From: Erysipelotrichaceae bacterium | Lineage (GTDB): Bacteria > Bacillota_I > Bacilli_A > Erysipelotrichales > Erysipelotrichaceae | Assembly (NCBI GenBank): GCA_963676105.1 | Contig: OY781039.1 | Span: 1,650,001-1,682,000 of the forward strand | DNA length: 32,000 nucleotides | Direction of reading: 5' to 3' | Shown: piece by piece, positions 19,048-31,551 of the stretch | Position numbering within the stretch: the stretch's first letter is position 1 | How the letters are laid out: each line of letters begins with the position of its first letter | Position numbers and translations under genes: made by a program | The notes under the pieces: model-generated | The model's database searches: none | Told to the model about the DNA's origin: nothing | The model's input: only the letters and a program-made list of their open reading frames with translations

Positions 19048-19497
19048 GTGAAACAATATCGTCTTCGTGATTATGTATTTGCCATAATTACGATTGTTGT
19101 GGGTGGGCAAGTACTATTTAATTTAGCTTTTAGTTTGCTTGGTTTGCCTTATGCGATCTCAAACAATATGTTACCTGAAGTCTTTTTAGTATTAGCTGGT
19201 TATGCGGTTTTGGGAGCACTTGTCTTTGCGATGATGCGATATACTGTTAATCGTTATCTACAAAAAGATACACTTATTTCCACTGCGCTAACTTTACCAC
19301 TAATGGGAATACTCTTAGCTGTAGGGATTGTATTTTATGAAAGTGCTGATTGGTTACCAATCGCAATTAGTATAGTAATATCAGCTTTGTATTACGCCTT
19401 TGTGTACATAAAAAAAGCATCTTGGGTATATTATTTCGCGATGCTTTATGTTGATATATTAGCGATATCCGTAGTTTTATTTGATATCCAAATTTAA
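19048..19497 (+). CDS. hypothetical integral membrane protein (4-5 TM)
   Basis: Hydrophobic segments occur throughout and no family was recognised. GGGAGG lies 7 nt before GTG 19048, while the tracked ATG 19033 has no RBS. Confidence 0.55.
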   Translation: MKQYRLRDYVFAIITIVVGGQVLFNLAFSLLGLPYAISNNMLPEVFLVLAGYAVLGALVFAMMRYTVNRYLQKDTLISTALTLPLMGILLAVGIVFYESADWLPIAISIVISALYYAFVYIKKASWVYYFAMLYVDILAISVVLFDIQI

Positions 19498-20292
19498 ATC
19501 AAAGAGTTTATTGAAAGCTTTAGCTAAGCCATCATTGAAGAGGTCATCAGTCACTTCATCAGCGATGGTTTTTACTTTGTCATCAGCATTGCCCATGGCA
19601 ACCCCACAACCGACGAGTTCTAACATTTCAATATCATTTATGCCATCACCAAAGGCATAACTATCAGCTTGTGTAAGTTGGGCGAAGGCAACCACTTTCA
19701 TACAAGATGAACCCTTAGTATGACCAGGTAAATGGATATCGATTCTTAAGTCATTCGGATCATAATAGGCATGTATTTCCCATTCTTCAGGTAATGCTTT
19801 TTCAACATTTCGCATATCTTTTTCATTATCAAAACTTGCAGTTATAGCGGAAGCTTCAATTTCATTCAAAACAAAAGGTAATGCAAGTTTCTCAATATCT
19901 TCTTTTTTGTTTCCATAATGCATGGCGTGCTTGATCGCATGTTCAATATGTTCTGGCGCAATCCACGAACCATTGACTCCGTGAAATGAAGATCCAGCAT
20001 TATTTTCTTTAAAGATATTATGTAGAAATGTAATTTGATCACAATTAAAAATATTATTTAGTAGTACGTTATTTTTATATTCAATGTATTGTCCATTGTT
20101 TAAAACAAAGCCATCAAACCATTCCTTGTGAACACTTATGGGTAGTTTTGAGCGTGAAGTTGCACAAATTAAAAGGTTTCCATTTTCTCTAAATTTTTTA
20201 AATGCATTAATGGTGTTTTGAGTAGGTTCTATCATGCTTTTTGAGAAGTCTAACATCGTACCATCAATGTCTATAAAAGCTATTTTTGTCAT
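19477..20292 (-). CDS. Cof-type HAD-IIB family hydrolase
   Basis: FIDIDGTMLD motif I and GDGINDIEML motif IV. There is a tandem ATG start, and the second ATG is better spaced from GAGG. Confidence 0.88.
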   Translation of the reverse strand: MTKIAFIDIDGTMLDFSKSMIEPTQNTINAFKKFRENGNLLICATSRSKLPISVHKEWFDGFVLNNGQYIEYKNNVLLNNIFNCDQITFLHNIFKENNAGSSFHGVNGSWIAPEHIEHAIKHAMHYGNKKEDIEKLALPFVLNEIEASAITASFDNEKDMRNVEKALPEEWEIHAYYDPNDLRIDIHLPGHTKGSSCMKVVAFAQLTQADSYAFGDGINDIEMLELVGCGVAMGNADDKVKTIADEVTDDLFNDGLAKAFNKLFDLNLDIK

Positions 20293-20403
20293 CATTTCCT
20301 CGTTTCTAATGACACAATTTTACCATGCTTAAAAATGAATAATTAAGATTGCAGTAAATTGGCAAGAATTTCCATACACTAAAAATATACATATATATTA
20401 AAA

Positions 20404-20464: not shown

Positions 20465-20494
20465 GGTGTGTCACTGAACTTGATCAGGCAATAA
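20465..20494 (+). promoter_or_regulatory. RAT (ribonucleic antiterminator) element
   Basis: GGTGTGTCACTGAACTTGATCAGGCAATAACC resembles the sacB/bglP RAT GGTTTGTTACTGA....CAGGCAA.ACC. Its 3' part overlaps the 5' arm of the terminator. Confidence 0.68.
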
Positions 20495-20522
20495 CCAATG
20501 CTTTTTGGTTGTTGCCTTTTTT
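20487..20522 (+). terminator. conditional intrinsic terminator overlapped by the RAT
   Basis: GGCAATAACCAA (20487-20498) / TTGGTTGTTGCC (20505-20516): 12 bp with one G-U, then T6. Confidence 0.75.
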
Positions 20523-20534
20523 GTTGGAGAACAT

Positions 20535-21377
20535 ATGAAGAAATATCAAATATTAAAAATCTTTAATAATAACGTTGTTCTTGTATTAGACAATGAAAGC
20601 CAACAAGAGGCTGTTTTCTACTCCAAAGGTATTGGTTTTGGTAAAAAAGAAAAACAGATCTTTAGTATAGATGAAGAAACTGTGGATAAATCGTTTATTT
20701 CTTACAACGAAGAATTCAAAGAAGTTTACATCAATTTACTGCAAGGCATAAACCATGAAATCTTTGAGTATTGTATTGACTACATCAATGTAGCTGAACA
20801 ACAATTGGGTGCTCTAAATCCAAGAATTCGCTTAGTGTTAACAGACCACATTGTCTTTGCGATTGAAAGAACTAAAAATCATCAGGATATTGTTAATCCA
20901 TTTATTGATGAAATTAAGATTCTTTATCCCGAAGAATATGCGGTTGCGGAATTATCACAAGAGTTTGTCTTTAAACCATTAAAGGTCAAAATTTCTGAAG
21001 ATGAAATTGGATTTATTGCGATGCATCTCTATGCAGCTAAGAAAAATATTGAAGTTAAGGAATCAGTCAAAACGATGCGTCTAGTCAATGAAATTATTGA
21101 AATCATTGAAATGGAAATTGGTTCTAAAATTACACGAGGTTTTGATTATAGTCGTTTGATTTATCATCTAAGATCTACGGTAGAGCGTAGCATTGAAAAC
21201 AAGATGATTAAGAACCCAATGTTGAAAGTTCTTAAAAATGAACTACACGATAGTTATGTGATAGCGGAAAAATGTGCGAAATACTTGAGTGATAAAGGAC
21301 AAGTACATTTAGTGGATGATGAAATTGGTTATATGGCGATTCATATTAACCGCATCACTCAGCAGCTAAAAAAATAG
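20535..21377 (+). CDS. BglG/LicT/SacY-family PRD-domain transcription antiterminator
   Basis: MKKYQILKIFNNNVVLV is a CAT RNA-binding domain, followed by two PRD repeats (FAIERTK..., IGFIAMHLY..., IGYMAIHINR). GGAG lies 5 nt before ATG 20535. The tracked start 20505 lies inside the terminator. Confidence 0.9.
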   Translation: MKKYQILKIFNNNVVLVLDNESQQEAVFYSKGIGFGKKEKQIFSIDEETVDKSFISYNEEFKEVYINLLQGINHEIFEYCIDYINVAEQQLGALNPRIRLVLTDHIVFAIERTKNHQDIVNPFIDEIKILYPEEYAVAELSQEFVFKPLKVKISEDEIGFIAMHLYAAKKNIEVKESVKTMRLVNEIIEIIEMEIGSKITRGFDYSRLIYHLRSTVERSIENKMIKNPMLKVLKNELHDSYVIAEKCAKYLSDKGQVHLVDDEIGYMAIHINRITQQLKK

Positions 21378-21442
21378 TTTGGTATTTATAGGACTGCAGC
21401 CTATTAATATAAAAATTTTCAAAAGGAGGACTTAGGTCGATT

Positions 21443-22837
21443 ATGTTTGGAAAACTACAAAAAGTCGGTAAAGCTTTGATGCTTCCGGTAGCCGTTATGC
21501 CAGCCGCAGCTATTTTATTAAGACTCGGTGCTGGTATTCCTGGTATTGAAGGGCTATTTGCTCAAATCTTATTAACAGCTGGTGCAGGTATCTTTGATAA
21601 CTTGTATCTCTTATTCGGTATTGGTATTGCTTTAGGTCTTGCAAAAGAAAATCACGGTTCAGCAGCTTTAGCTGGTGCAGTTGGTGTTCTAGTTGCGAAG
21701 AATGTTTATACAGCGATTAATCCTGACATCAACACTGGTGTTATGGTTGGGATCGTTATGGGGATTTTAGCTGGTACTCTTTATAACAAGTACTACAACA
21801 TTAAACTTCCAGAATTCTTAGGATTCTTTGGTGGTAAACGTTTTATCCCTATTCTAATGTCATTTGTTGGTCTACTTGTTGGGATCGCATTTGGTTATGT
21901 ATGGCCTCCAATCCAAAATGGATTAGATGCTTTAGGTAATGCAGCAGCTGCTTCTGGTGTTGTTGGTACCTTCTTCTTTGGTTTCGCTAACCGTCTACTC
22001 ATTCCGGTTGGCTTACACCATGTATTAAATTCGATTTTCTGGTTTACATTTGGTTCATTCACAACTGCTGCTGGAGAAATTATTAATGGTGATTTATGGC
22101 GTTACTTCGCTGGCGATCCTACTGCTGGGGTTTACATGGCAGGGTTCTATCCAGTAATGATGTTTGGTCTACCAGCCGCAACATTTGCGATGTATACTAC
22201 CGCAAAACCTGAAAATAAAAAGTTTGTTGCGGGGATGTTCTTCTCAATTGCGTTTACTTCATTCTTAACAGGGATTACAGAACCAATTGAATTCTTATTT
22301 GTATTCTTATCACCAGCGCTATACGCGATACATGCAGTACTCACTGGTTTGGCTTTAGCTGTAACTCAAGGTCTTGGGATCTTACATGGTTTTGGTTTCT
22401 CAGCTGGATTATTTGACTATGTATTAAATATGTATCTCGCAACCAATGGTTACTTACTCATACCATTAGGCTTAGCCTTCGCAGTTGTTTACTTCTTCGT
22501 ATTCAGATGGGCAATCCTCAAATGGGATATTCCTACACCTGGTCGTTTAGATGAAGAAATGGGTGATGATAGTGCACTGGAAGAACTCGGTGTGAGTGGT
22601 CTTGCTCAAGCATACTATGATGCGATTGGTGGTAAAGCTAATTTAGTATCATGTGATGCATGTATTACACGTTTACGTTTAAGTGTTAATGATGCAAGCT
22701 TAATTGATGAAGCAGCTGTTAAAAAATTAGGTGCTTCAGGCATTGTGAAACCAAATGACAAGAATGTTCAAATTGTTGTTGGTACACATGCAGAGCTTAT
22801 TGCAGATGAAATAAATACACTTGTTAAAAGAAAATAA
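21443..22837 (+). CDS. PTS glucose/N-acetylglucosamine-family EIICB component
   Basis: MFGKLQKVGKALMLPVAVMPAAAILLRLG is a PtsG/NagE-type N-terminus, and the C-terminal EIIB carries the CITRLRL phosphocysteine motif. Confidence 0.92.
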   Translation: MFGKLQKVGKALMLPVAVMPAAAILLRLGAGIPGIEGLFAQILLTAGAGIFDNLYLLFGIGIALGLAKENHGSAALAGAVGVLVAKNVYTAINPDINTGVMVGIVMGILAGTLYNKYYNIKLPEFLGFFGGKRFIPILMSFVGLLVGIAFGYVWPPIQNGLDALGNAAAASGVVGTFFFGFANRLLIPVGLHHVLNSIFWFTFGSFTTAAGEIINGDLWRYFAGDPTAGVYMAGFYPVMMFGLPAATFAMYTTAKPENKKFVAGMFFSIAFTSFLTGITEPIEFLFVFLSPALYAIHAVLTGLALAVTQGLGILHGFGFSAGLFDYVLNMYLATNGYLLIPLGLAFAVVYFFVFRWAILKWDIPTPGRLDEEMGDDSALEELGVSGLAQAYYDAIGGKANLVSCDACITRLRLSVNDASLIDEAAVKKLGASGIVKPNDKNVQIVVGTHAELIADEINTLVKRK

Positions 22838-22851
22838 TTTAGGAGAGTATT

Positions 22852-23307
22852 ATGCTTGGACTATTCAAGAAAAAACCCATTAAAATTACAGCGCCTATCA
22901 AAGGTGAAATCATTGAATTAAAAGATGTGAATGATCAAGTCTTTTCACAAAAAATGGTTGGGGATGGTTTTGCGATTATTCCAAGTAGTGATGTAGTGCT
23001 TGCTCCATTTGATGCAGAAGTCTTAATGGTCTTTCATACCAACCATGCATTAGGTCTAAAATCACAAGAGGGAATTGAACTTTTAATTCATGTTGGTTTA
23101 GATACTGTTGATTTGAAAGGCGAAGGATTTGAGTCTTTTGTTAAAGCTGGAGACAATGTTAAAAAAGGTGATAAGTTATTAGGATTTGATTTACCTTCGC
23201 TTTTAAGTAAAGGTATTGATATGACTTCACCTGTTATCATCACCAATCCAAAAAAAGTAAATAGAATTAATTTAACAGATGATGAAGGAGTTGAAGTTTA
23301 CTTATAA
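22852..23307 (+). CDS. PTS glucose-family EIIA component (Crr-like)
   Basis: FHTNHALGLK and LIHVGLDTV are the two conserved His motifs. Confidence 0.9.
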   Translation: MLGLFKKKPIKITAPIKGEIIELKDVNDQVFSQKMVGDGFAIIPSSDVVLAPFDAEVLMVFHTNHALGLKSQEGIELLIHVGLDTVDLKGEGFESFVKAGDNVKKGDKLLGFDLPSLLSKGIDMTSPVIITNPKKVNRINLTDDEGVEVYL

Positions 23308-23330
23308 AACTTCTTCATCAGATGTTTATT

Positions 23331-23361
23331 AAAGAACTTTCATTGGAAAGTTCTTTCTTTA
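23331..23361 (+). terminator. intrinsic terminator after EIIA
   Basis: An 11-bp perfect stem AAAGAACTTTC (23331-23341) / GAAAGTTCTTT (23346-23356), then CTTTA. Confidence 0.75.
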
Positions 23362-23398
23362 TCAGTATGATATAAATAAGAATAAGTGAGGTAGTGTG

Positions 23399-24121
23399 AT
23401 GTTTGACATCAATGTTTTAGACAATTATGAAGAAGTATCTAAAAAAGCAAGTGAAGTTGTTTTAGATATCTTAAAGGGGAAAAAAGTAACACTTGGTTTG
23501 GCTACTGGATCATCTCCTGTTGGAATGTACAAGAATCTAGTTAAAGCATTTAAAGAAGGACAATCTTTTTCTCATGTCACAAGTGTGAACCTAGATGAGT
23601 ATGTTGGAATCGATAGAGATAATGAACAAAGTTACTATCATTTCATGTTTGAACATCTATTTAAACATGTTGATATGAAAGAAGAAAACATTCATATACC
23701 TACCGGTACAGGTGATATGAATGATGTGACTAAAGCTTATGAGACTTTCTTAGAATCACATCCACAAGATTTACAAGTTTTAGGTTTAGGATCTAACGGT
23801 CATATTGGATTTAATGAACCAGGTACATCGTTTGATTCAGTTGCACATGTGATTGAGTTAGAAGAAGGAACACGTGCTGATAATGCTCGTTTCTTCGATT
23901 CAATTGATGATGTTCCAACTTATGCGATCACCATGGGAATTAAAGATATCATGCGTGCCAAGAAAATAATTGTCATTGCGACAGGTGAAAAGAAAGCACA
24001 AGCGATCTATGAAATGATTCATGGCGAAATCACAGAAGACGTTCCATGTACCATTCTACAAAAACATCCTAACGTAGTCGTTGTAGTAGACAAAGAAGCT
24101 GGGAAGTTATTAGATAAATAA
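23399..24121 (+). CDS. nagB: glucosamine-6-phosphate deaminase
   Basis: LGLATGSSP and LGLGSNGHIGFNEPG motifs. GAGG lies 7 nt before ATG 23399, and GTG 23396 is an alternative start. Confidence 0.93.
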   Translation: MFDINVLDNYEEVSKKASEVVLDILKGKKVTLGLATGSSPVGMYKNLVKAFKEGQSFSHVTSVNLDEYVGIDRDNEQSYYHFMFEHLFKHVDMKEENIHIPTGTGDMNDVTKAYETFLESHPQDLQVLGLGSNGHIGFNEPGTSFDSVAHVIELEEGTRADNARFFDSIDDVPTYAITMGIKDIMRAKKIIVIATGEKKAQAIYEMIHGEITEDVPCTILQKHPNVVVVVDKEAGKLLDK

Positions 24122-24135
24122 TAGGAGGGCATATT

Positions 24136-25275
24136 ATGATAATTCAAAGTACTAGAGTATATCTTGAGGAAATGTGGACAGCTGCCCAAATAGAAATTAA
24201 AGATAAGAAAATTATTGGAATTTATCCCTATGGCACAAAGAGTGTAGATGAAGATTATGGAAACAATAAAATCTTACCGGGTTTTATTGATACTCATTGT
24301 CATGGAGCTTTAGGTTTTGACACAAATGATGTTGATCCTGAAGGCCTAAAAAAGTGGTTAAAAGGAGCGGTTGATGAAGGTATTACATCACTTTGTCCTA
24401 CAACCATTACACAAAGTGAAGAAGTACTGACAAACGCTTTAGTCAATGTAGCGAAGGTTGCGAATAGTGACTATGAAGGTGCACGTATTGCGGGTATTCA
24501 TTTTGAAGGCCCCTATTTAAATAAAGCTTTTAAAGGAGCTCAACCTGAATCACATATTGTTCAAGGAACCATCAAACAATTTGATGATTTTTATAAAGCA
24601 TCAAATGGACTAATTAAAGTTGTCACCATGGCTACTGAAAATGATCCTGAATTCACTTTAACTAAACATATGAATAAGTTGGATATAGCTGTTAATATTG
24701 GACACTCAGCTTCAACTTATGAAGAAGCACAGTTTGCATTGGCAAATGGCGCAAATGGATTTACTCATACCTATAATGGCATGAGTAAATTTAATCACCG
24801 TACCCCTAACTTAATGGGTGCATCTTTAGACATTCGTGATGGATATTCAGAAATAATCACTGATGGTGTTCATGTCAGTTGGCCAGCGATAAGAATGTTG
24901 TTTAAAACTAAAGGGAAAGACCATGTGGTGATTATCACCGATTCTGTTCAAGCTAAAAAGGTTGGGGTTGGTCACTATGTCTTTGGTGGTCAAAACATTG
25001 AAGTGAAAGAAAATGGTGGCGCTTACCTTGAAAGTGGTAACTTAGCAGGTAGCACATTACTTTATAATCGAGCTCTTGAAAATGTCATTGTGCATGCGCA
25101 AGTGGATGAAGTCAGCGCTATTAACGCCGCTACCATCAATCCTGCAAAAGTTTTAAAACTAGATCATGTTAAAGGACGACTACGTGCAGGTTTTGATGCA
25201 GATATCGTGGTTCTAAATGAGACTTATGATGTCCTTGCGACCTATGTTGAAGGAACATTAGTCTATAAAATCTAA
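24136..25275 (+). CDS. nagA: N-acetylglucosamine-6-phosphate deacetylase
   Basis: PGFIDTHCHGA, HFEGPYL, IGHSAS, THTYNGM and a C-terminal DADIVVL. Confidence 0.93.
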   Translation: MIIQSTRVYLEEMWTAAQIEIKDKKIIGIYPYGTKSVDEDYGNNKILPGFIDTHCHGALGFDTNDVDPEGLKKWLKGAVDEGITSLCPTTITQSEEVLTNALVNVAKVANSDYEGARIAGIHFEGPYLNKAFKGAQPESHIVQGTIKQFDDFYKASNGLIKVVTMATENDPEFTLTKHMNKLDIAVNIGHSASTYEEAQFALANGANGFTHTYNGMSKFNHRTPNLMGASLDIRDGYSEIITDGVHVSWPAIRMLFKTKGKDHVVIITDSVQAKKVGVGHYVFGGQNIEVKENGGAYLESGNLAGSTLLYNRALENVIVHAQVDEVSAINAATINPAKVLKLDHVKGRLRAGFDADIVVLNETYDVLATYVEGTLVYKI

Positions 25276-25290
25276 TTAATTAAATGTTAT

Positions 25291-25314
25291 TTTGTTTCAT
25301 TTTTTCATGAACAA
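25291..25314 (+). terminator. weak candidate terminator hairpin after nagA
   Basis: TTTGTTTCAT / ATGAACAAA with one bulged T. The T-run starts only 8 nt further downstream. Confidence 0.3.
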
Positions 25315-25340
25315 AGTAATATTTTTTTACTCTATTAAAG

Positions 25341-25357
25341 ATGTAATAGTATTACAT
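25341..25357. promoter_or_regulatory. operator-like 17-bp perfect palindrome (site 1)
   Basis: ATGTAATA-G-TATTACAT. Confidence 0.5.
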
Positions 25358-25380: not shown

Positions 25381-25409
25381 TTGTAATATTATTACATAAT
25401 GTGTATAAT
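25381..25409 (+). promoter_or_regulatory. putative sigma-A promoter of the Man-family PTS/murQ operon
   Basis: TTGTAA (25381-25386), 17-nt spacer, TATAAT (25404-25409). Confidence 0.55.
25382..25396. promoter_or_regulatory. operator-like 15-bp perfect palindrome (site 2), overlapping the -35 and spacer
   Basis: TGTAATA-T-TATTACA has the same half-sites as site 1. The two site centres are 40 bp apart. Confidence 0.5.
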
Positions 25410-25418
25410 TTGTTGCAG

Positions 25419-25433
25419 ATGAAAACGGTTGCA
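25419..25433. promoter_or_regulatory. cre (CcpA catabolite-responsive element) candidate
   Basis: ATGAAAACGGTTGCA satisfies all 15 positions of WTGNAANCGNWNNCW. It is centred about 10 nt downstream of the predicted TSS. Confidence 0.6.
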
Positions 25434-25468: not shown

Positions 25469-26263
25469 ATGGAATTATCAATTCTAATTATCTTATTACT
25501 AACATTGTATGTTGGTATTGGTGTTATCGACCAAATTTCAATTCAAGCAGGTCTATATTCACCATTATTTGCTGCCGCAGTTACAGGTTTCTTATTAAAG
25601 GATTTACAAACAGGTTTAATTGTTGGGGCTACGCTTCAACTCATGACCCTAGGTGTGGCAACCTATGGTGGGGCATCTGTTCCTGATTTTCTATCGGGTG
25701 CAGTTATGGGAACAGCTTTCGCTATATTATCGGGAAATGGAGCTGAATATGGAATCGGTTTAGCCGTTCCAATCGGATTATTATTAACTCAGTTAGATGT
25801 CCTTGGACGTATGACTAATACATTCTTCCAACATAAGGCAGATCAATATGCTGCTGATGGGGATGTAAAAGGTGTTGAGATGGCTAATGTGCTTGGTGCT
25901 TTACCTTGGATGTTATCTCGTATGATTCCTGTATTTATTGGTTTATATTTCGGAGATGCAGTTGTGACTAGTTTAAACTCAGTGATTCCTGCATGGTTTA
26001 TTACAGGTTTAAGAGCTGCTGGTTCAATTCTACCAGCTATGGGGATGGCAATTCTAATGCGCTATCTACCGCTTAAGAAATACTATCCATATTACATCAT
26101 TGGATTTGTGATGATGGCCTATGGAAATTCAATCTTTTCAATCTTATCTGTTGCGCTTGTTGGTTTCGCATTAGCTGTCATTCATGTAGGCTATACAAAA
26201 CCTGCTGCCTTTGCGCAAGTGTATGGACCATCAATTGATGGGGAGGTAGAAATTGATGACTAA
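25469..26263 (+). CDS. PTS mannose/fructose/sorbose-family EIIC component
   Basis: 264-aa polytopic protein with the typical IIC-Man layout. RBS AGGAGGAAAG. Confidence 0.9.
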   Translation: MELSILIILLLTLYVGIGVIDQISIQAGLYSPLFAAAVTGFLLKDLQTGLIVGATLQLMTLGVATYGGASVPDFLSGAVMGTAFAILSGNGAEYGIGLAVPIGLLLTQLDVLGRMTNTFFQHKADQYAADGDVKGVEMANVLGALPWMLSRMIPVFIGLYFGDAVVTSLNSVIPAWFITGLRAAGSILPAMGMAILMRYLPLKKYYPYYIIGFVMMAYGNSIFSILSVALVGFALAVIHVGYTKPAAFAQVYGPSIDGEVEIDD

Positions 26264-27083
26264 GCAAGTTCAAGTTACAAAACAAGATTTAAATAAAGTA
26301 TTTGTAAGAAATTTATTTGGCTTACAACTCGCCTGGAATTATGAAAAAATGCAAGGTCTAGGCTATTGCTATGTCATCCTTCCAGTGCTTAAAAAACTTT
26401 ATGGACATGATCCAGAAAAAATGAAGCGTGCACTCCAAATGCACTTAGGATTCTTCAATACAACACCAGCGATGTCTAACTTGATTATTGGTGCTGATAT
26501 TGCGATTGAAGAAGAGATTGGTATTGAAAGTGAAAAAGTCGTTACTGGTATTAAAACTGGTTTAATGGGACCATTTGCTGGTGTTGGAGACACATTATTC
26601 ATCGCAATCTACAGAGCGGTTGTTTTCTCAATTGCTGCATACTTAGCACTAGAAGGAAATGTAGTTGGATTATTTATACCATTTATCGCAGTTGCTGCTG
26701 TGATTGCAGTACGTTATAAATTTACGTTCTTCGGTTATGAACAAGGTAAAAAATTAGCGAGTGGCTTTGCTGACAAGATAAATCTAATTACTGAAGGGGC
26801 ATCGATTTTAGGACTAGCGGTTGTTGGGGCCTTAATCCCATCTGTTATTCGATATAGTTTAAACTTAAACTTTGCTTTTGGAGATGTAACACTTTCTATT
26901 CAAGATATGTTAAATCGTATCTTACCAGGTCTAATACCTCTAAGTATTACACTGCTTTCTTACTGGTTACTAGGTAAGAAAAAAATGAATTCAACACGCT
27001 TAATCTTCTTCTTAATCGCATTAGGTTTAGTGTTGGGTAATCTACAAACATTAGTAGATGCATTATTTAGCGTATTCGCATAA
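26256..27083 (+). CDS. PTS mannose-family EIID component
   Basis: FVRNLFGLQLAWNYEKMQGLGYCY is a IID signature. It overlaps the IIC stop, and GGAGG lies upstream. Confidence 0.9.
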   Translation: MTKQVQVTKQDLNKVFVRNLFGLQLAWNYEKMQGLGYCYVILPVLKKLYGHDPEKMKRALQMHLGFFNTTPAMSNLIIGADIAIEEEIGIESEKVVTGIKTGLMGPFAGVGDTLFIAIYRAVVFSIAAYLALEGNVVGLFIPFIAVAAVIAVRYKFTFFGYEQGKKLASGFADKINLITEGASILGLAVVGALIPSVIRYSLNLNFAFGDVTLSIQDMLNRILPGLIPLSITLLSYWLLGKKKMNSTRLIFFLIALGLVLGNLQTLVDALFSVFA

Positions 27084-27096
27084 GGAGTAAAAACAA

Positions 27097-27573
27097 ATGA
27101 TTGTACATGCACGAGTAGACGAAAGATTAATCCATGGTCAAGTGGCTATGGTTTGGACGAACACTGTTGGCGCAACACGTATCGTTGTGGTAAATGATGA
27201 AGCGGTTAAAGATGAAATGATGATTTCAGCCTTGAAAATAGCTAAACCAGCAGGGGTTAAGTTATCTTTATTATCGATAGAAAAAGCAAAAATAAAACTA
27301 AATGATGATACGTATGCTCAAGACCGTGTGTTTCTCATTTGTAAGAATATTAAAGATATGATCACACTCGTAGATGAGGTTGATCAATTAAAAAGCTTTA
27401 ATGTTGGTAATGTTTCGCAAAAACAAGATACAATAAATATTAAGAAGTCTGTTAATCTTACACAAGATGAAATAGACATTCTAAAGAAATTAGTTGAAAA
27501 AGGTATTTATGTAACGGCACAAATGGTGCCGAATGAATCTGATCAATTGATTGTCGAATATTTTAATTATTAA
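27097..27573 (+). CDS. PTS mannose-family EIIB component
   Basis: MIVHARVDERLIHGQVAMVW is the phospho-His motif of IIB-Man/Sor. Confidence 0.9.
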   Translation: MIVHARVDERLIHGQVAMVWTNTVGATRIVVVNDEAVKDEMMISALKIAKPAGVKLSLLSIEKAKIKLNDDTYAQDRVFLICKNIKDMITLVDEVDQLKSFNVGNVSQKQDTINIKKSVNLTQDEIDILKKLVEKGIYVTAQMVPNESDQLIVEYFNY

Positions 27574-27587
27574 AGGAGCGAGGTTTG

Positions 27588-28433
27588 ATGAATATTATTC
27601 TAGAGTTAAGGAGCCAATTAGAAAGCTTAAGCAAGACGAATAAACGTATTGTTGAGTTTATCTTAAAAAATCCAAGTGTAGTTTTAGAAAACACGGCCGC
27701 CCAACTAGGAGAATTGAGTCAAACCTCATCGGCTTCTATCATTCGTTTTGTCCATGCTTTAGGCTACAAAGGATTAGACGAATTCAAAATAGAGTTAGCA
27801 AAAGAATTAAGTACACAAGATGACGTACTAAGCATAAGTGGTGGTATCAATCAAAATGATGATTTAGAAACACTTTGTTTAAAAACACAAAGTTTAATAG
27901 ATCAAACAAATCGTGATCTCTTTTATCAATTAAAAGAAGATCAATTAGCTCAAGCTATTAAAATTGTTCAGGATGCTAAACACGTCTATCTGTTTGGGAT
28001 AGGCGCATCATCGCTTGCTGCCTATGATCTATATCACAAATTTAATCGTATTCAAAAACAATCAGTTTTTAACTTTGATTCACATATGACGGTTGAATTC
28101 TTACATTATTTAGAAAAGACTGACTGTGTCATTGTCTATTCTTATAGTGGGCATTCACGTGAAGTTGTGGAAGCGGCAGTACTCGCAAAGTCTAAAGGTG
28201 TTAAAGTAATTGCGATTACTCAGAACGCACCTTCACCTTTAAGTGAGAATGCCGATATCATCTTAACTGTTCCAAACAATGAACCAGCGCCTCGTGTTGG
28301 GGCGATTGCTTCAAAGTTTTCGATCATGTTGATATCTGATTTATTGTATCTAGGTGTGATTCAAAAAGATCTCAAGAAAGTTGAAAAGAACTTACTTGAA
28401 ACCTCTAAGCTAACTCGAAAATTAAAACTATAA
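27588..28433 (+). CDS. RpiR/MurR-family transcriptional regulator (HTH_6 plus SIS domain)
   Basis: The N-terminal HTH (NKRIVEFILKNP...AAQLGELSQTSSASIIRFVHALGYKG) is followed by SIS features (VYLFGIGASS...). AGGAG lies 9 nt before ATG 27588. Confidence 0.88.
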   Translation: MNIILELRSQLESLSKTNKRIVEFILKNPSVVLENTAAQLGELSQTSSASIIRFVHALGYKGLDEFKIELAKELSTQDDVLSISGGINQNDDLETLCLKTQSLIDQTNRDLFYQLKEDQLAQAIKIVQDAKHVYLFGIGASSLAAYDLYHKFNRIQKQSVFNFDSHMTVEFLHYLEKTDCVIVYSYSGHSREVVEAAVLAKSKGVKVIAITQNAPSPLSENADIILTVPNNEPAPRVGAIASKFSIMLISDLLYLGVIQKDLKKVEKNLLETSKLTRKLKL

Positions 28434-28457
28434 ATATTTTAGAAAGAGATAGGTTTA

Positions 28458-29366
28458 ATGATTGAATTAAATAAACTGACTTCTGAACAAATAAATGATG
28501 ACTCATTAAGAATTAGTGATGTTAATACAGTAGAAGTTTTAAATATAATAAACAACGAAGATCAAAAGATAGCTTTGTTGATTAAAGAGGAAATTCCAAA
28601 GATAGAAATTGTAGTAGACGAAATGACCAGACGTTTTAAAAAAGGTGGTCGTATTATTTATGTTGGGGCAGGATCTTCAGGTCGTGTAGGATTGATGGAT
28701 TCAGTTGAACTCAATCCAACATACGGCATTGAAAATGACCGAGTTTTTAGTTTGTTGGCTGGTGGTGCAAATGCACTACACGAAGCTGTTGAAGGGGCTG
28801 AAGATTCGATCGAATTGGCCATTCAAGACATTAGTGCTTTAAATGTAAAAGAAGAAGATATTATCATTGGGATTGCCGCAAGTGGCAGAACACCTTATAC
28901 TTTGGCAGTTTTAGACTATGCGAGTCGTCGAAATGCATTAACTGTCGCTATCACAACAAATGTTGGTAGTGAAATGTCTAAAGTTGCTAATCTTGCCATT
29001 GAAGTTGATGTTGGGGCAGAAGTTATCCAAGGTTCAACTCGAATGAAATCAGGCACTGCACAGAAGATGATTGTAAATATGATCTCGACGGCTGTTATGG
29101 TAAAACTTGGTCGTGTCTATAAAAATCAAATGGTTTTTGTAAAGGCAAGCAACTTTAAACTTAGAGTAAGGGCTCGAAACATCTTAATGCAATGTACAGA
29201 CTTAAATGAAATTACAGCTCAAACTTTACTTGAAAACAGTGACTTTGATGTGGCAAGCGCCATCGTTATGCATGAATTAAATGTAAGTCTAGAGAGAGCA
29301 CAAAAACTCATAAAATCAAATCACGGTAATATCTATGCAGCCCTAAATGCACAGGTAATCACATGA
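28458..29366 (+). CDS. murQ: N-acetylmuramic acid 6-phosphate etherase
   Basis: GAGSSGR, IGIAASGRTPYT and QGSTRMKSGTAQKM motifs with a C-terminal UBA-like tail. About 300 aa, as in MurQ. Confidence 0.9.
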   Translation: MIELNKLTSEQINDDSLRISDVNTVEVLNIINNEDQKIALLIKEEIPKIEIVVDEMTRRFKKGGRIIYVGAGSSGRVGLMDSVELNPTYGIENDRVFSLLAGGANALHEAVEGAEDSIELAIQDISALNVKEEDIIIGIAASGRTPYTLAVLDYASRRNALTVAITTNVGSEMSKVANLAIEVDVGAEVIQGSTRMKSGTAQKMIVNMISTAVMVKLGRVYKNQMVFVKASNFKLRVRARNILMQCTDLNEITAQTLLENSDFDVASAIVMHELNVSLERAQKLIKSNHGNIYAALNAQVIT

Positions 29367-29779
29367 AACCCTATTGTTTAATGTTGAGTCATGGCAATAT
29401 GGCGATAGAAACGCTTAAGTCTGGTGAAATGATTGCGGGTAAACAAAGTACAATTCTAGCTTTAAGCTTTTCAGAAAATGATTCAGTTGAAAGTTTAAGA
29501 GATGAAGTAAATAAGATTATAGAAAGTCATGTGAATGATCAGTTAATTGTTATGGTTGATTTACATGGTGGAACACCCTTTAACACAGTTGTAAATCATG
29601 TCTTAAAAGCAAAGAACATAAAATTGATGACTGGATTAAATCTTCCATTACTACTCGAATATATTTTCTCAAGTCATGAAGATTTAGATGAATTATCTAA
29701 ACATCTAGAATTGGTTGGTCAAGATTCTATCCATATCTTAGATGCAGTACATGATACTGATGATGAAATTGAATTTTAA
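29363..29779 (+). CDS. PTS mannose-family EIIA component
   Basis: 138 aa. MLSHGNMA is the phospho-His SHG motif, and DLHGGTPFN is present. Its start overlaps the murQ stop (ATGA). Confidence 0.8.
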   Translation: MKPYCLMLSHGNMAIETLKSGEMIAGKQSTILALSFSENDSVESLRDEVNKIIESHVNDQLIVMVDLHGGTPFNTVVNHVLKAKNIKLMTGLNLPLLLEYIFSSHEDLDELSKHLELVGQDSIHILDAVHDTDDEIEF

Positions 29780-29795
29780 TCTAGGACATTTTCAG

Positions 29796-29830
29796 AGATT
29801 CTCATACTACAATAGTGAGAATCTTTTTTT
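29796..29830 (+). terminator. intrinsic terminator ending the PTS/murQ operon
   Basis: AGATTCTCA (29796-29804) / TGAGAATCT (29816-29824), then T7. Confidence 0.8.
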
Positions 29831-29832
29831 AT

Positions 29833-29861
29833 TTGTGAAGTAGAATTATTAGGTATATAAT
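29833..29861 (+). promoter_or_regulatory. putative promoter of dinJ-yafQ
   Basis: TTGTGA (29833-29838), 17-nt spacer, TATAAT (29856-29861). Confidence 0.55.
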
Positions 29862-29894
29862 ATGCACATACAATGCAATGCATAGTATGTGCAT
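29862..29894. promoter_or_regulatory. 33-bp near-perfect palindrome, probable toxin-antitoxin operator
   Basis: ATGCACATACAATGCA-A-TGCATAGTATGTGCAT has 15 of 16 arm positions complementary. It starts immediately after the -10 and contains a nested ATGCA-A-TGCAT core. Confidence 0.6.
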
Positions 29895-29909
29895 TGAAAG
29901 GAGAGAATT

Positions 29910-30191
29910 ATGGCAACTAAAAATGTAACAATCCGCATGGATGTTGAATTAAAAAAATCTGCAGAGAAGCTATTTAATGAACTTGGTTTAAATATGACAA
30001 CTGCAATCACCATGTTTATTAAACAAGCAGTAAGGGAACAAAGATTTCCATTACCGATATCGCTCAATGTACCTAATGAAAGAACAGCAGCAGCAATTGA
30101 AGAAGGTAGAAGGCTTGCGAAAGATCCAAATGCAAAATTTTATTCTTCTATGGAAGAATTAATAAATGATTTAGAAAGTGATGAAGTATAG
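29910..30191 (+). CDS. dinJ: type II antitoxin, RelB/DinJ family
   Basis: TKNVTIRMDVELKKSAEKLFNELGLNMTTAITMFIKQAVREQRFP is a ribbon-helix-helix DinJ-type N-terminus. RBS AAAGGAGAG. Confidence 0.88.
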   Translation: MATKNVTIRMDVELKKSAEKLFNELGLNMTTAITMFIKQAVREQRFPLPISLNVPNERTAAAIEEGRRLAKDPNAKFYSSMEELINDLESDEV

Positions 30192-30456
30192 TGTAAAAAG
30201 TACTTCGCAATTTAAAAAGAATCTCAAACTATCAAGAAAACGGAATAGGGATATAAATCATTTGTATGAGTTAATAGAACTCATCGCATCAGGAGAAACC
30301 ATTCCATCAAAATACAAAGAACACATTTTAATTGGTAACTTTAAAGGCATACATGAATGTCATGTTGAGAATGACTGGTTATTATTATTTGAATTTGATG
30401 AAGAAGAATTAAAATTAATTCTCCATGGTGTAGGAACACATATTGATTTATTTTAA
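30178..30456 (+). CDS. yafQ: type II toxin, YafQ/RelE-family mRNA interferase
   Basis: SQFKKNLKLSRKRNRDINHL...KYKEHILIGNFKGIHECHVENDWLLLF...GTH is collinear with E. coli YafQ. It overlaps dinJ by 14 nt. ATG 30181 is an alternative start. Confidence 0.85.
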   Translation: MMKYSVKSTSQFKKNLKLSRKRNRDINHLYELIELIASGETIPSKYKEHILIGNFKGIHECHVENDWLLLFEFDEEELKLILHGVGTHIDLF

Positions 30457-31551
30457 AAAGAGATTATCTGAATCTTCTTTATATATATATTCTTTAACAT
30501 CAATATTTAACTCAGCACAAATATTTTTAAGTTCATTCATGTCTTCGTCATTGATATCTAGACCATGCATCTTTACACGTTCATAATATTCAAATTCTTT
30601 TTCACCATGAATATAGATGCGGTCATGATTTGGTGATTTTTTAGATGTCTTAATTTCATCAAGAAAAGCATTTAACTTAGTTTGAATTAAATCTGCTGGA
30701 CCAAATATTTTTGGATCAATAACCATAAAGAAGTGACTGACTCCTGAGTGTGTATGCTCTTCAATGTGATTTGATGTTTGTCCTAAAGAAATAATACCAG
30801 TTAGATATTCTACTAACATTGATAAACCATAACCTTTATGTGATCCTGTTTCTTCACTTTCACCACCTAATGGAAATAAGCCTGATAAACCAGAATAAAT
30901 GGATTTAAGGATATCACTTGGATTGGTTGTTGCTTGATAGTTTTCATCTAAGCCCCAAGAGTCAGGGATTTGTTTGCCTTCTTTTTGTGCAACTTCAATC
31001 TTTCCTAAAGGAACAGTGGAAGTGGCCACATCAAAGTTAAAAGGAACACCACCTGTAGGGATGCTTACTGCGATAGGATTAGTCCCTAACATGGCTTGTA
31101 CACCATGAGTTGGCACAACACAAGCTAAGGAGTTAGTCATTGAAATACCAATAAGATTTTGTTTTGTTGCTTCTAAGGAATAATATGAGGCAAAACCATA
31201 GTGATTAGAATTACGAACAGTTGTGAGACAGATACCACTGCGTTTAGCTTTTTCAATGGTCTTACTCATCGCAAATCGTGAAACAAGTTGTCCCATACCT
31301 TCATGTCCGTCAATGACACATGAAACAGGGGATTCAAATACAATCTCAGGTTTAGAATTTAGTTTAACTAATCCTTCTAGAATTTGTGTGTGATACATCA
31401 TTAAACGATTAATACCATGTGTACGTATTCCATAAGCATCAGATTTAATTAATGTATCCGTAATATACTTTGCATCGTCAGTATTAAAGCCATATGCACG
31501 ATATATAGACTCAACAAGTGTTATTAGTGAGTTTAATGAGTAATTATTCAT
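30448..31551 (-). CDS. Ldh_2-family (malate/L-lactate/sulfolactate-type) NAD(P)H-dependent oxidoreductase
   Basis: 367 aa with GIRTHGINRL, NSNHYG and GSHKGYGLS blocks typical of the Ldh_2 family. Confidence 0.85.
   Translation of the reverse strand: MNNYSLNSLITLVESIYRAYGFNTDDAKYITDTLIKSDAYGIRTHGINRLMMYHTQILEGLVKLNSKPEIVFESPVSCVIDGHEGMGQLVSRFAMSKTIEKAKRSGICLTTVRNSNHYGFASYYSLEATKQNLIGISMTNSLACVVPTHGVQAMLGTNPIAVSIPTGGVPFNFDVATSTVPLGKIEVAQKEGKQIPDSWGLDENYQATTNPSDILKSIYSGLSGLFPLGGESEETGSHKGYGLSMLVEYLTGIISLGQTSNHIEEHTHSGVSHFFMVIDPKIFGPADLIQTKLNAFLDEIKTSKKSPNHDRIYIHGEKEFEYYERVKMHGLDINDEDMNELKNICAELNIDVKEYIYKEDSDNLFLK

Follow-up and report, generated by a model that had tools for sequence, protein, structure and literature searches.

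Phosphotransferase system (PTS) importers of N-acetylmuramic acid (MurNAc) are, in the searchable literature, all of the MurP type. In Escherichia coli, the divergon murR / murQ-murP-yfeW (b2427-b2430) combines the etherase MurQ, the RpiR-family regulator MurR and a glucose/sucrose-family EIIBC permease (PMC5061867), and in Bacillus subtilis (murQ-murR-murP-amiE-nagZ-namZ; PMC8054146) and Staphylococcus aureus (mupG-murQ-murP-murR; PMC6262408) murQ and murR are co-transcribed with the PTS gene. MurP-independent MurNAc routes are already known, given the MurT, MurNAc kinase and MurQ of Tannerella forsythia as that system is cited in PMC10154347. Here we analyse a cassette in which murQ lies among the genes of a mannose-family PTS. 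It occupies positions 25469-29779 (forward strand) of a 32,000-nt stretch of DNA, hereafter the window, which corresponds to C1:1650001-1682000 of the complete, 1.96-Mb, 34% GC genome of an Erysipelotrichaceae bacterium (G000); positions without a prefix are those of the whole stretch, and G and L numbers denote the genomes and loci used in the comparison.

The closest described relative of this cassette is Enterococcus faecalis EF0455-EF0461 (OG1RF_10340-10346, or 'PTS2'), whose PTS has been called a predicted N-acetylgalactosamine (GalNAc) PTS (PMC2766626) and was elsewhere set aside as possibly incomplete, with three genes counted (PMC8547443); a strain devoid of (p)ppGpp up-regulates OG1RF_10341 and 10346 jointly (PMC6656871). 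None of the papers that we found assigns this cassette to MurNAc, and no assignment of any mannose-family PTS to MurNAc was found in the literature searched, with most subscription journals outside its coverage. On balance, and with a modest lean, we think it probable from the gene content that the cassette is an inducible MurNAc-scavenging operon, in which the PTS would import MurNAc as MurNAc-6-phosphate (MurNAc-6-P) and MurQ would turn this into N-acetylglucosamine-6-phosphate (GlcNAc-6-P) and D-lactate; widened to include muramyl peptides as substrates, the same reading becomes likely. It rests on the identities of the genes, their catalytic and phospho-acceptor residues, the co-inheritance of PTS, MurQ and RpiR, a conserved pair of operators, and the fact that a search of this genome turned up no MurP.

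Results

The cassette comprises six separate open reading frames (ORFs) in the order IIC-IID-IIB-rpiR-murQ-IIA. A first-pass annotation had described the PTS as physically fused to MurQ, which is apt for the clustering of the genes and wrong if a protein fusion was meant, a reading that the separate ORFs lead us to reject. The first three genes encode the mannose-family subunits EIIC (25469-26263; 264 aa; PF03609, E 3.9e-71), EIID (26256 with an ATG start, or 26253 with TTG, to 27083; 275 aa; PF03613, E 1.2e-89) and EIIB (27097-27573; 158 aa; PF03830), the IIC-IID pairing being textbook for this family. They are followed by a MurR-like RpiR-family regulator (27588 with ATG, or 27585 with TTG, to 28433) with a helix-turn-helix (HTH) domain (PF01418, HTH_6) and a SIS domain (PF01380), by the MurQ homologue (28458-29366) and by EIIA (29363-29779; 138 aa; PF03610), all on the forward strand. 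All four family domains, IIA, IIB, IIC and IID, are present according to Pfam, and alignment to ManX shows the phospho-acceptor histidine conserved in both IIA (His10, matching His10 of the ManX IIA domain) and IIB (His13, matching ManX His175).

Gene order and compactness proved to be as first annotated, according to ORF calls, junction measurement and RNA folding. Neighbouring genes overlap or nearly touch (IIC/IID -8 nt, IID-IIB 13 nt, IIB-rpiR 11-14 nt, rpiR-murQ 24 nt, and murQ/IIA -4 nt with a shared ATGA), and a single predicted intrinsic terminator follows on the same strand at 29794-29832 (12-bp stem to 29826, then a T-run; -13.3 kcal/mol, z -2.4). The terminal position of IIA had been thought unusual, a view we do not share, as it is the normal order in Enterococcus, in Bacillus and in most Erysipelotrichaceae; in Lachnospiraceae, IIA stands before IIB or is fused with it as IIAB. 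The transporter passes the thresholds of no named mannose subfamily (ManYZ, AgaCD, AgaWE), with IIC at 116-157 bits against cut-offs of 278-340 and IID at 131-204 against 293-500, and in a tree of IIC plus IID it forms a branch separate from these subfamilies. Nor is it a MurP, since it consists of PF03609 and PF03613 proteins and not of a single glucose/sucrose-family EIIBC.

Linkage of this transporter to murQ extends far beyond the window. With IID as the query, a protein search gave 824 homologues with E values of 1e-60 or below, among the best 120 of which identities were 66-83% and Lachnospiraceae, Enterococcus, Bacillus and Erysipelotrichaceae were all included; every neighbourhood fetched for such homologues read IIC-IID-(IIA)-IIB-rpiR-murQ. 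In the IIC plus IID tree, built from 40 loci, the window falls in a group of 20 (a 19-row subclade with support 98/96, plus L067 at 92/47), 19 of which have murQ within 5 kb, while the remaining one (L041) ends at a contig edge. PTS relatives at 51% identity or less adjoin other enzymes, and the sole murQ label outside the group (L061_489) belongs to an unrelated PTS that happens to adjoin a cassette. Recurrence in all untruncated loci of the clade indicates that the linkage first noticed in the window is not due to chance. Trees of the other proteins agree: 17 of 18 cassette MurQs group in one clade (SH 99) that excludes E. coli MurQ as well as the second MurQ of G000, and seven cassette RpiRs form another (SH 100) whose nearest neighbours regulate other murQ operons. 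As PTS, MurQ and RpiR form matching clades, the cassette is inherited as a block.

Its patchy distribution suggests that it has spread horizontally or has often been lost. The cassette was found in 3 of about 400 other genomes in a phylum-level sample of the window organism, in 5 of 71 Enterococcaceae, in one genome besides the centre among 301 in an order sample centred on a Lachnospiraceae genome, and in none of 301 in a class sample centred on Domibacillus; none of 20 genomes of the same genus has an IIC above 45% identity. A scan of genome contigs with MurQ returned mostly unrelated murQ loci. At the base of the clade stands a rearranged cassette (L067:3029-8546; rpiR-murQ-TPR protein-IIA-IIC-IID-IIB) whose MurQ and RpiR group with the canonical ones, possibly an independent pairing. 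In an E. faecalis Logan contig IIC is split (L057:6206-7008) and in L078 it is whole, so that an assembly error or a strain mutation is likely. Loci L093, L094 and L098, from related genomes and Clostridium butyricum, carry murQ and MurR beside a Lac/cellobiose-family PTS IIC, a BadF-type kinase and a phospho-beta-glucosidase, which makes a third PTS family coupled to MurQ.

Judged by sequence and structural model, the enzyme of the window is a true MurQ etherase homologue for which cleavage of MurNAc-6-P is predicted. It exceeds the TIGR00274 equivalog cut-off (329.5 against 302 bits). Glu83 and Glu114 of E. coli MurQ, which we take to be catalytic, as we do for the other residue roles used here, align with Glu84 and Glu115 and are invariant in 15 cassette MurQs. 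The window protein retains the motifs G-x-S-G-R, S-G-R-T-P-Y, G-S-x-R-M-K-x-G-T-A-Q-K and N-x-K-L of E. coli MurQ, together with its Ser-rich phosphate loops and the Lys motif at the C terminus, and all core active-site positions checked are identical between the two enzymes. An AlphaFold model (pLDDT 87) has the MurQ fold of a SIS and a C-terminal helical domain and matches the Haemophilus influenzae MurQ structure 4LZJ with a TM score of 0.92 and a root-mean-square deviation of 1.6-1.9; sequence matches at E < 1e-20 among solved structures were MurQ structures only. The identification as MurQ is thereby upheld, and the TIGR00274 score and the match to 4LZJ exclude a sugar-phosphate isomerase or deaminase.

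The first-pass annotation had also joined nagA and nagB to the cassette as one complete path. Both genes do lie upstream (nagB, 23396-24121; nagA, 24136-25275; both forward), and NagA and NagB would consume the GlcNAc-6-P made by MurQ, but they are part of a separate GlcNAc unit (20505-25275, forward) that consists of a GlcT/NagY-like antiterminator gene, a NagE-type EIICB, EIIA-Glc (crr), nagB and nagA and resembles the nagY-nagE arrangement of E. faecalis (PMC12502629). Profile scores for this unit are 570 against a cut-off of 553 for TIGR01998, with TIGR00502 and TIGR00221 also above cut-off. A strong hairpin with a T-run, a predicted terminator, closes it after nagA (25282-25329, also delimited as 25282-25324, forward; -14.6 kcal/mol, z -3.4, 0 of 200 shuffles), and the cassette has a promoter and operators of its own before IIC, so nagA and nagB form a different transcription unit. 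Their adjacency is moreover particular to G000, since among homologous cassettes there is only an opposite-strand nagB or nagA in L057 and L067; we therefore reject their inclusion in the cassette operon. Both AT-rich hairpins, after nagA and after IIA, were missed by the terminator scanner, and RNA folding was used in its place. Another terminator hairpin (20486-20517) precedes the antiterminator gene, and G000 has a second nagB (C1:93164-93883) that is 63% identical to that of the window.

Between the nagA hairpin and IIC lie two perfect palindromes of the form TGTAAT-N3-ATTACA (25342-25356 and 25382-25396), putative repressor sites of the RpiR/MurR type. The second overlaps the -35 hexamer and spacer of a predicted forward sigma-A-type promoter (25381-25409; TTGTAA-17-TATAAT); its 10 of 12 consensus matches are of a kind that often arises by chance in AT-rich DNA, and its support is its position between the operators and a putative catabolite-responsive element (cre) for CcpA. 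The latter (25419-25433, forward) starts just past the -10, has no mismatch to what we take to be the cre consensus and is identical in L036. No other perfect copies of this palindrome exist in the genome. Pairs with a spacing of about 40 bp are found again 5' of the homologous operons L036, L038, L001, L049, L055, L074 and L075; the enterococcal cassettes have weaker variants with A in place of T. The cassette's own promoter, the two conserved operators, the cre site and the terminator hairpin after nagA are new here. A pair of one-mismatch palindromes, 42 bp apart, also lies 5' of another RpiR gene in G000 (C1:1045759 and 1045801), which raises the possibility that RpiR-family regulators in general use this motif; a further one-mismatch copy at 20029-20043, within a HAD-like gene (19477-20295), is probably there by chance (0.49 expected).

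The regulator itself fits the MurR type to which it had been assigned. It has the HTH and SIS domains, is linked to murQ and outscores all other proteins of the genome against each of the eight murQ-linked MurR queries (26-37% identity). It does not pass the enteric MurR model NF012026 (95.7 bits, cut-off 408), and the MurR proteins of B. subtilis and S. aureus are likewise just 27% identical to that of E. coli (PMC5061867). In the orthologous cassette of E. faecalis, the PTS gene EF0456 is listed among those under CcpA/cre control (PMC2766626).

Several other genes were seen near the cassette or its homologues. Just past the cassette terminator, two small overlapping forward ORFs (29910-30456; 93 and 92 aa) resemble a type II toxin-antitoxin pair of the DinJ/RelB-YafQ kind; a candidate promoter (29833-29861) and a palindrome (29876-29896) accompany them. 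Converging on the cassette is an Ldh_2-family (PF02615) dehydrogenase gene (30448-31551, reverse) that is not kept beside homologous cassettes; a link to the lactate released by MurQ may exist and is speculative. A TauE/SafE-family exporter recurs divergently or downstream of homologous cassettes (L057:5266-6045, L053, L055, L040, L060, L101, L102) and is absent from G000; it could, as a speculation, export lactate or another product. In three Erysipelotrichaceae the cassette is followed by secreted PL8 lyases of very great length (1764-2176 aa), in which the His/Tyr motif of the catalytic region is intact (L055:11756-, L074:6001-, L075:11549-). Locus L074 is from G194, a genome labelled Anaerorhabdus that belongs to the same family as G000 and in which GH88 and KduI were not found. 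Finally, a PF03372 exonuclease/endonuclease/phosphatase domain occurs on surface proteins near the cassette in L060 (11216-13114) and at the N-terminus of L055:11756-, the two being 46% identical.

Discussion

On the reading that we favour, phosphate would pass from EI and HPr to His10 of EIIA and His13 of EIIB, and EIICD would import MurNAc freed from peptidoglycan while phosphorylating it at C6. MurQ would then cut the lactyl ether of MurNAc-6-P to yield GlcNAc-6-P and D-lactate, and the NagA and NagB of the separately transcribed nag unit would probably carry GlcNAc-6-P on to fructose-6-phosphate. The internal RpiR protein would repress its own operon by binding the two palindromes, one of which lies over the -35, until MurNAc-6-P, the presumed inducer, releases it; CcpA would add a further layer by shutting the operon off on preferred sugars.

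How far such a route is independent of MurP depends on the genome. No MurP orthologue was found in the complete genome G000, where the best match is a beta-glucoside-type EIIBC (25-29% identity, 93-137 bits) and true MurPs of related genomes score at least 233 bits. As the MurP model NF007152 was too enteric-specific (one control genome above cut-off), the searches were repeated with Bacillota MurP queries. MurP was likewise not found in G194, G256, G297, G422, G735, G1029 and G1058, and in four of them (G194, G422, G735 and G1058) no murQ other than that of the cassette was found. Several observations weigh against the favoured reading. Several of the MurP-negative genomes are drafts. A murQ-murP pair is present in four of the five enterococcal carriers (E. 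faecalis, E. crotali and another two members of the Enterococcaceae), and the cassette carrier B. chungangensis has MurP too, so that plain MurNAc uptake through the cassette would be redundant there. G000 has other sources of MurNAc-6-P, namely anmK, a mupG-like gene and a second murQ. Furthermore, the cassette MurQs carry D-[AS]-[IV]-E-L-x-P-T by a catalytic Glu, where D-A-S-E-C-P-P-T is found elsewhere, and that of the window sits on a long branch, both of which suggest that specificity may have shifted. The earlier proposal of a non-MurP route is partly supported, but the cassette is not simply a replacement of MurP: it can stand alone, yet in many carriers it exists alongside the canonical route, a hint at another affinity or at another substrate that contains MurNAc.

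These additional genes have settings of their own. The G000 anmK homologue (C1:258218-259336) is 45% identical to Priestia megaterium AnmK, and the mupG-like gene stands alone (C1:1076619-1077788). The second murQ is genus-wide (L012:7589-8875, or C1:1443588-1444874 in G000) and follows purB and an orphan Lac-family EIIA gene; in G003, G011, G014, G018 and G020 a mupG-like gene lies between purB and the EIIA gene, lost from this position in G000. murA is present in G000, which is not an obvious MurNAc auxotroph.

The foremost alternative, unlikely though well worth considering, is that the PTS natively takes up and phosphorylates short muramyl peptides (MurNAc-L-Ala, muramyl dipeptide) or a MurNAc ester; a YfeW/AmiE-like hydrolase would trim these in the cytoplasm before MurQ finishes the job, and the window copy would be a reduced form that lost the hydrolase. 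A PF00144 serine hydrolase gene directly follows murQ in 10 of the 18 complete cassettes of the tree; its product has SxxK, YSD, VHDxKA and HTG motifs and 26-30% identity to E. coli YfeW, lacks the N-terminal leader of YfeW, and has close orthologues (43-100%) among the 71 Enterococcaceae inside cassettes only. Such a substrate would also explain the coexistence with MurP. To our knowledge, however, the substrates characterised for mannose-family PTS comprise monosaccharides, disaccharides and sugar-amino-acid conjugates. The other eight complete cassettes, that of the window included, lack the hydrolase gene; in G000 none was found elsewhere in the genome either, and this absence fits a substrate that needs no trimming. 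The activity of the hydrolase is a prediction, and its likeness to AmiE is one of analogy: the AmiE of B. subtilis, from the corresponding operon, acts as a muramoyl-L-alanine amidase (PMC8054146). By the same analogy, the set of murQ, MurR, PTS and PBP4b/AmiE-like hydrolase mirrors murQP-yfeW and murQRP-amiE and supports a peptidoglycan-derived substrate. In its boldest form, which we consider improbable but not negligible, the clade would be a dedicated mannose-family PTS for muramyl peptides such as the NOD2 ligand muramyl dipeptide in gut Bacillota including E. faecalis, with import, phosphorylation, a cytoplasmic AmiE/YfeW-like amidase and MurQ in sequence, distinct from the extracellular trimming of B. 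subtilis; commensals would then gain a direct sink for immune-active cell-wall fragments.

Rather less probable is that a MurQ subfamily of shifted specificity acts on another O3-lactyl amino sugar, such as a stereoisomer derived from the surface polysaccharides of bacteria or muramic acid in de-N-acetylated form. The clade-specific motif by the catalytic Glu, the separate MurQ clade and the coexistence with canonical murQ-murP would all suit this reading, and non-acetylated amino sugars are often carried by mannose-family PTS. Yet a similar E-L-x-P-T motif also occurs in Bacillus MurQs adjoining a nagE-type PTS (L004, L005), the checked core of the active site is that of E. coli MurQ, MurQ chemistry is thought to rely on a 2-acetamido aldehyde, and four genomes have no murQ that we found other than the cassette's.

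We give little credence to a general amino-sugar transporter (GalNAc, GlcNAc, mannose) with murQ as a mere passenger. EF0456 has been termed a predicted GalNAc PTS (PMC2766626), and the top NCBIfam match of IIC is AgaW, yet at half its cut-off; no agaS or tagatose aldolase homologue was found in G000 or any cassette, co-inheritance with murQ and a MurR-like regulator is strict, and GlcNAc is already served by NagE next door. Very improbable, finally, is the import of unsaturated glycosaminoglycan disaccharides (uronate 1-3 HexNAc), with a MurQ paralogue that beta-eliminates the O3 uronate in place of GH88: an intact-looking PL8 lyase gene directly follows the operon in Breznakia, Anaerorhabdus (G194, where no GH88 was found) and Eubacterium hominis, the nearer outgroups include a PTS linked to GH88 and PL8, at 48% identity, and a TauE-family exporter is often close by, but PL8, GH88 and KduI fail to track the cassette, as none of them was found in G000, PL8 was found in just 5 of 12 other carrier genomes and adjacently in one family only, and KduI was not found in 8 of 13 genomes.

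If the clade does carry MurNAc, this would be a new substrate for the mannose family, would give the long-unassigned E. faecalis operon EF0455-0461 a function, and would account for the supply of MurQ in those Lachnospiraceae and Erysipelotrichaceae that have no MurP. The chemistry after uptake is already known, which limits the surprise.

Comparison with known systems

The E. faecalis cassette is orthologous and has the same gene order, its IID being 69% and its MurQ 46% identical to those of the window. We identified it by gene order between osmC (EF0453) and sodA (EF0463) and by an exact primer match, with OG1RF_RS01870 as murQ; it adds the hydrolase EF0460 and a divergent tauE, both absent from the window copy. 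The glycosaminoglycan-disaccharide PTS with GH88 and PL8 (Bacillus cereus pE33L466, L080) is of the same PTS family, and its IIC and IID are 48% identical to those of the window, but it occupies a separate tree branch and needs GH88, KduI and KduD, the first two of which were not found in G000. Its substrate is likewise a HexNAc with an acidic O3 substituent. In Tannerella, as far as the citing account describes it, a non-PTS permease and an ATP-dependent kinase feed MurQ, whereas in the cassette uptake and phosphorylation would be coupled by the PTS.

With the B. subtilis and S. aureus operons the cassette shares the joint transcription of murQ, murR and PTS genes, and with that of B. subtilis, where the hydrolase-bearing cassettes are concerned, an amidase-type serine hydrolase; it differs in having no MurP, NagZ, NamZ or MupG, and its hydrolase looks cytoplasmic, whereas AmiE is secreted. 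Compared with E. coli, MurQ, an RpiR-family MurR and a PTS permease are common to both, and a YfeW-like hydrolase is present in most homologous cassettes. In place of the glucose/sucrose-family EIIBC, the cassette uses four mannose-family subunits (EIIABCD) and brings an EIIA of its own, its regulator gene is inside the operon, and the hydrolase of its family has no leader and is missing in the window copy. Overall, the cassette would operate in the manner of MurP-MurQ-MurR without itself being a MurP system.

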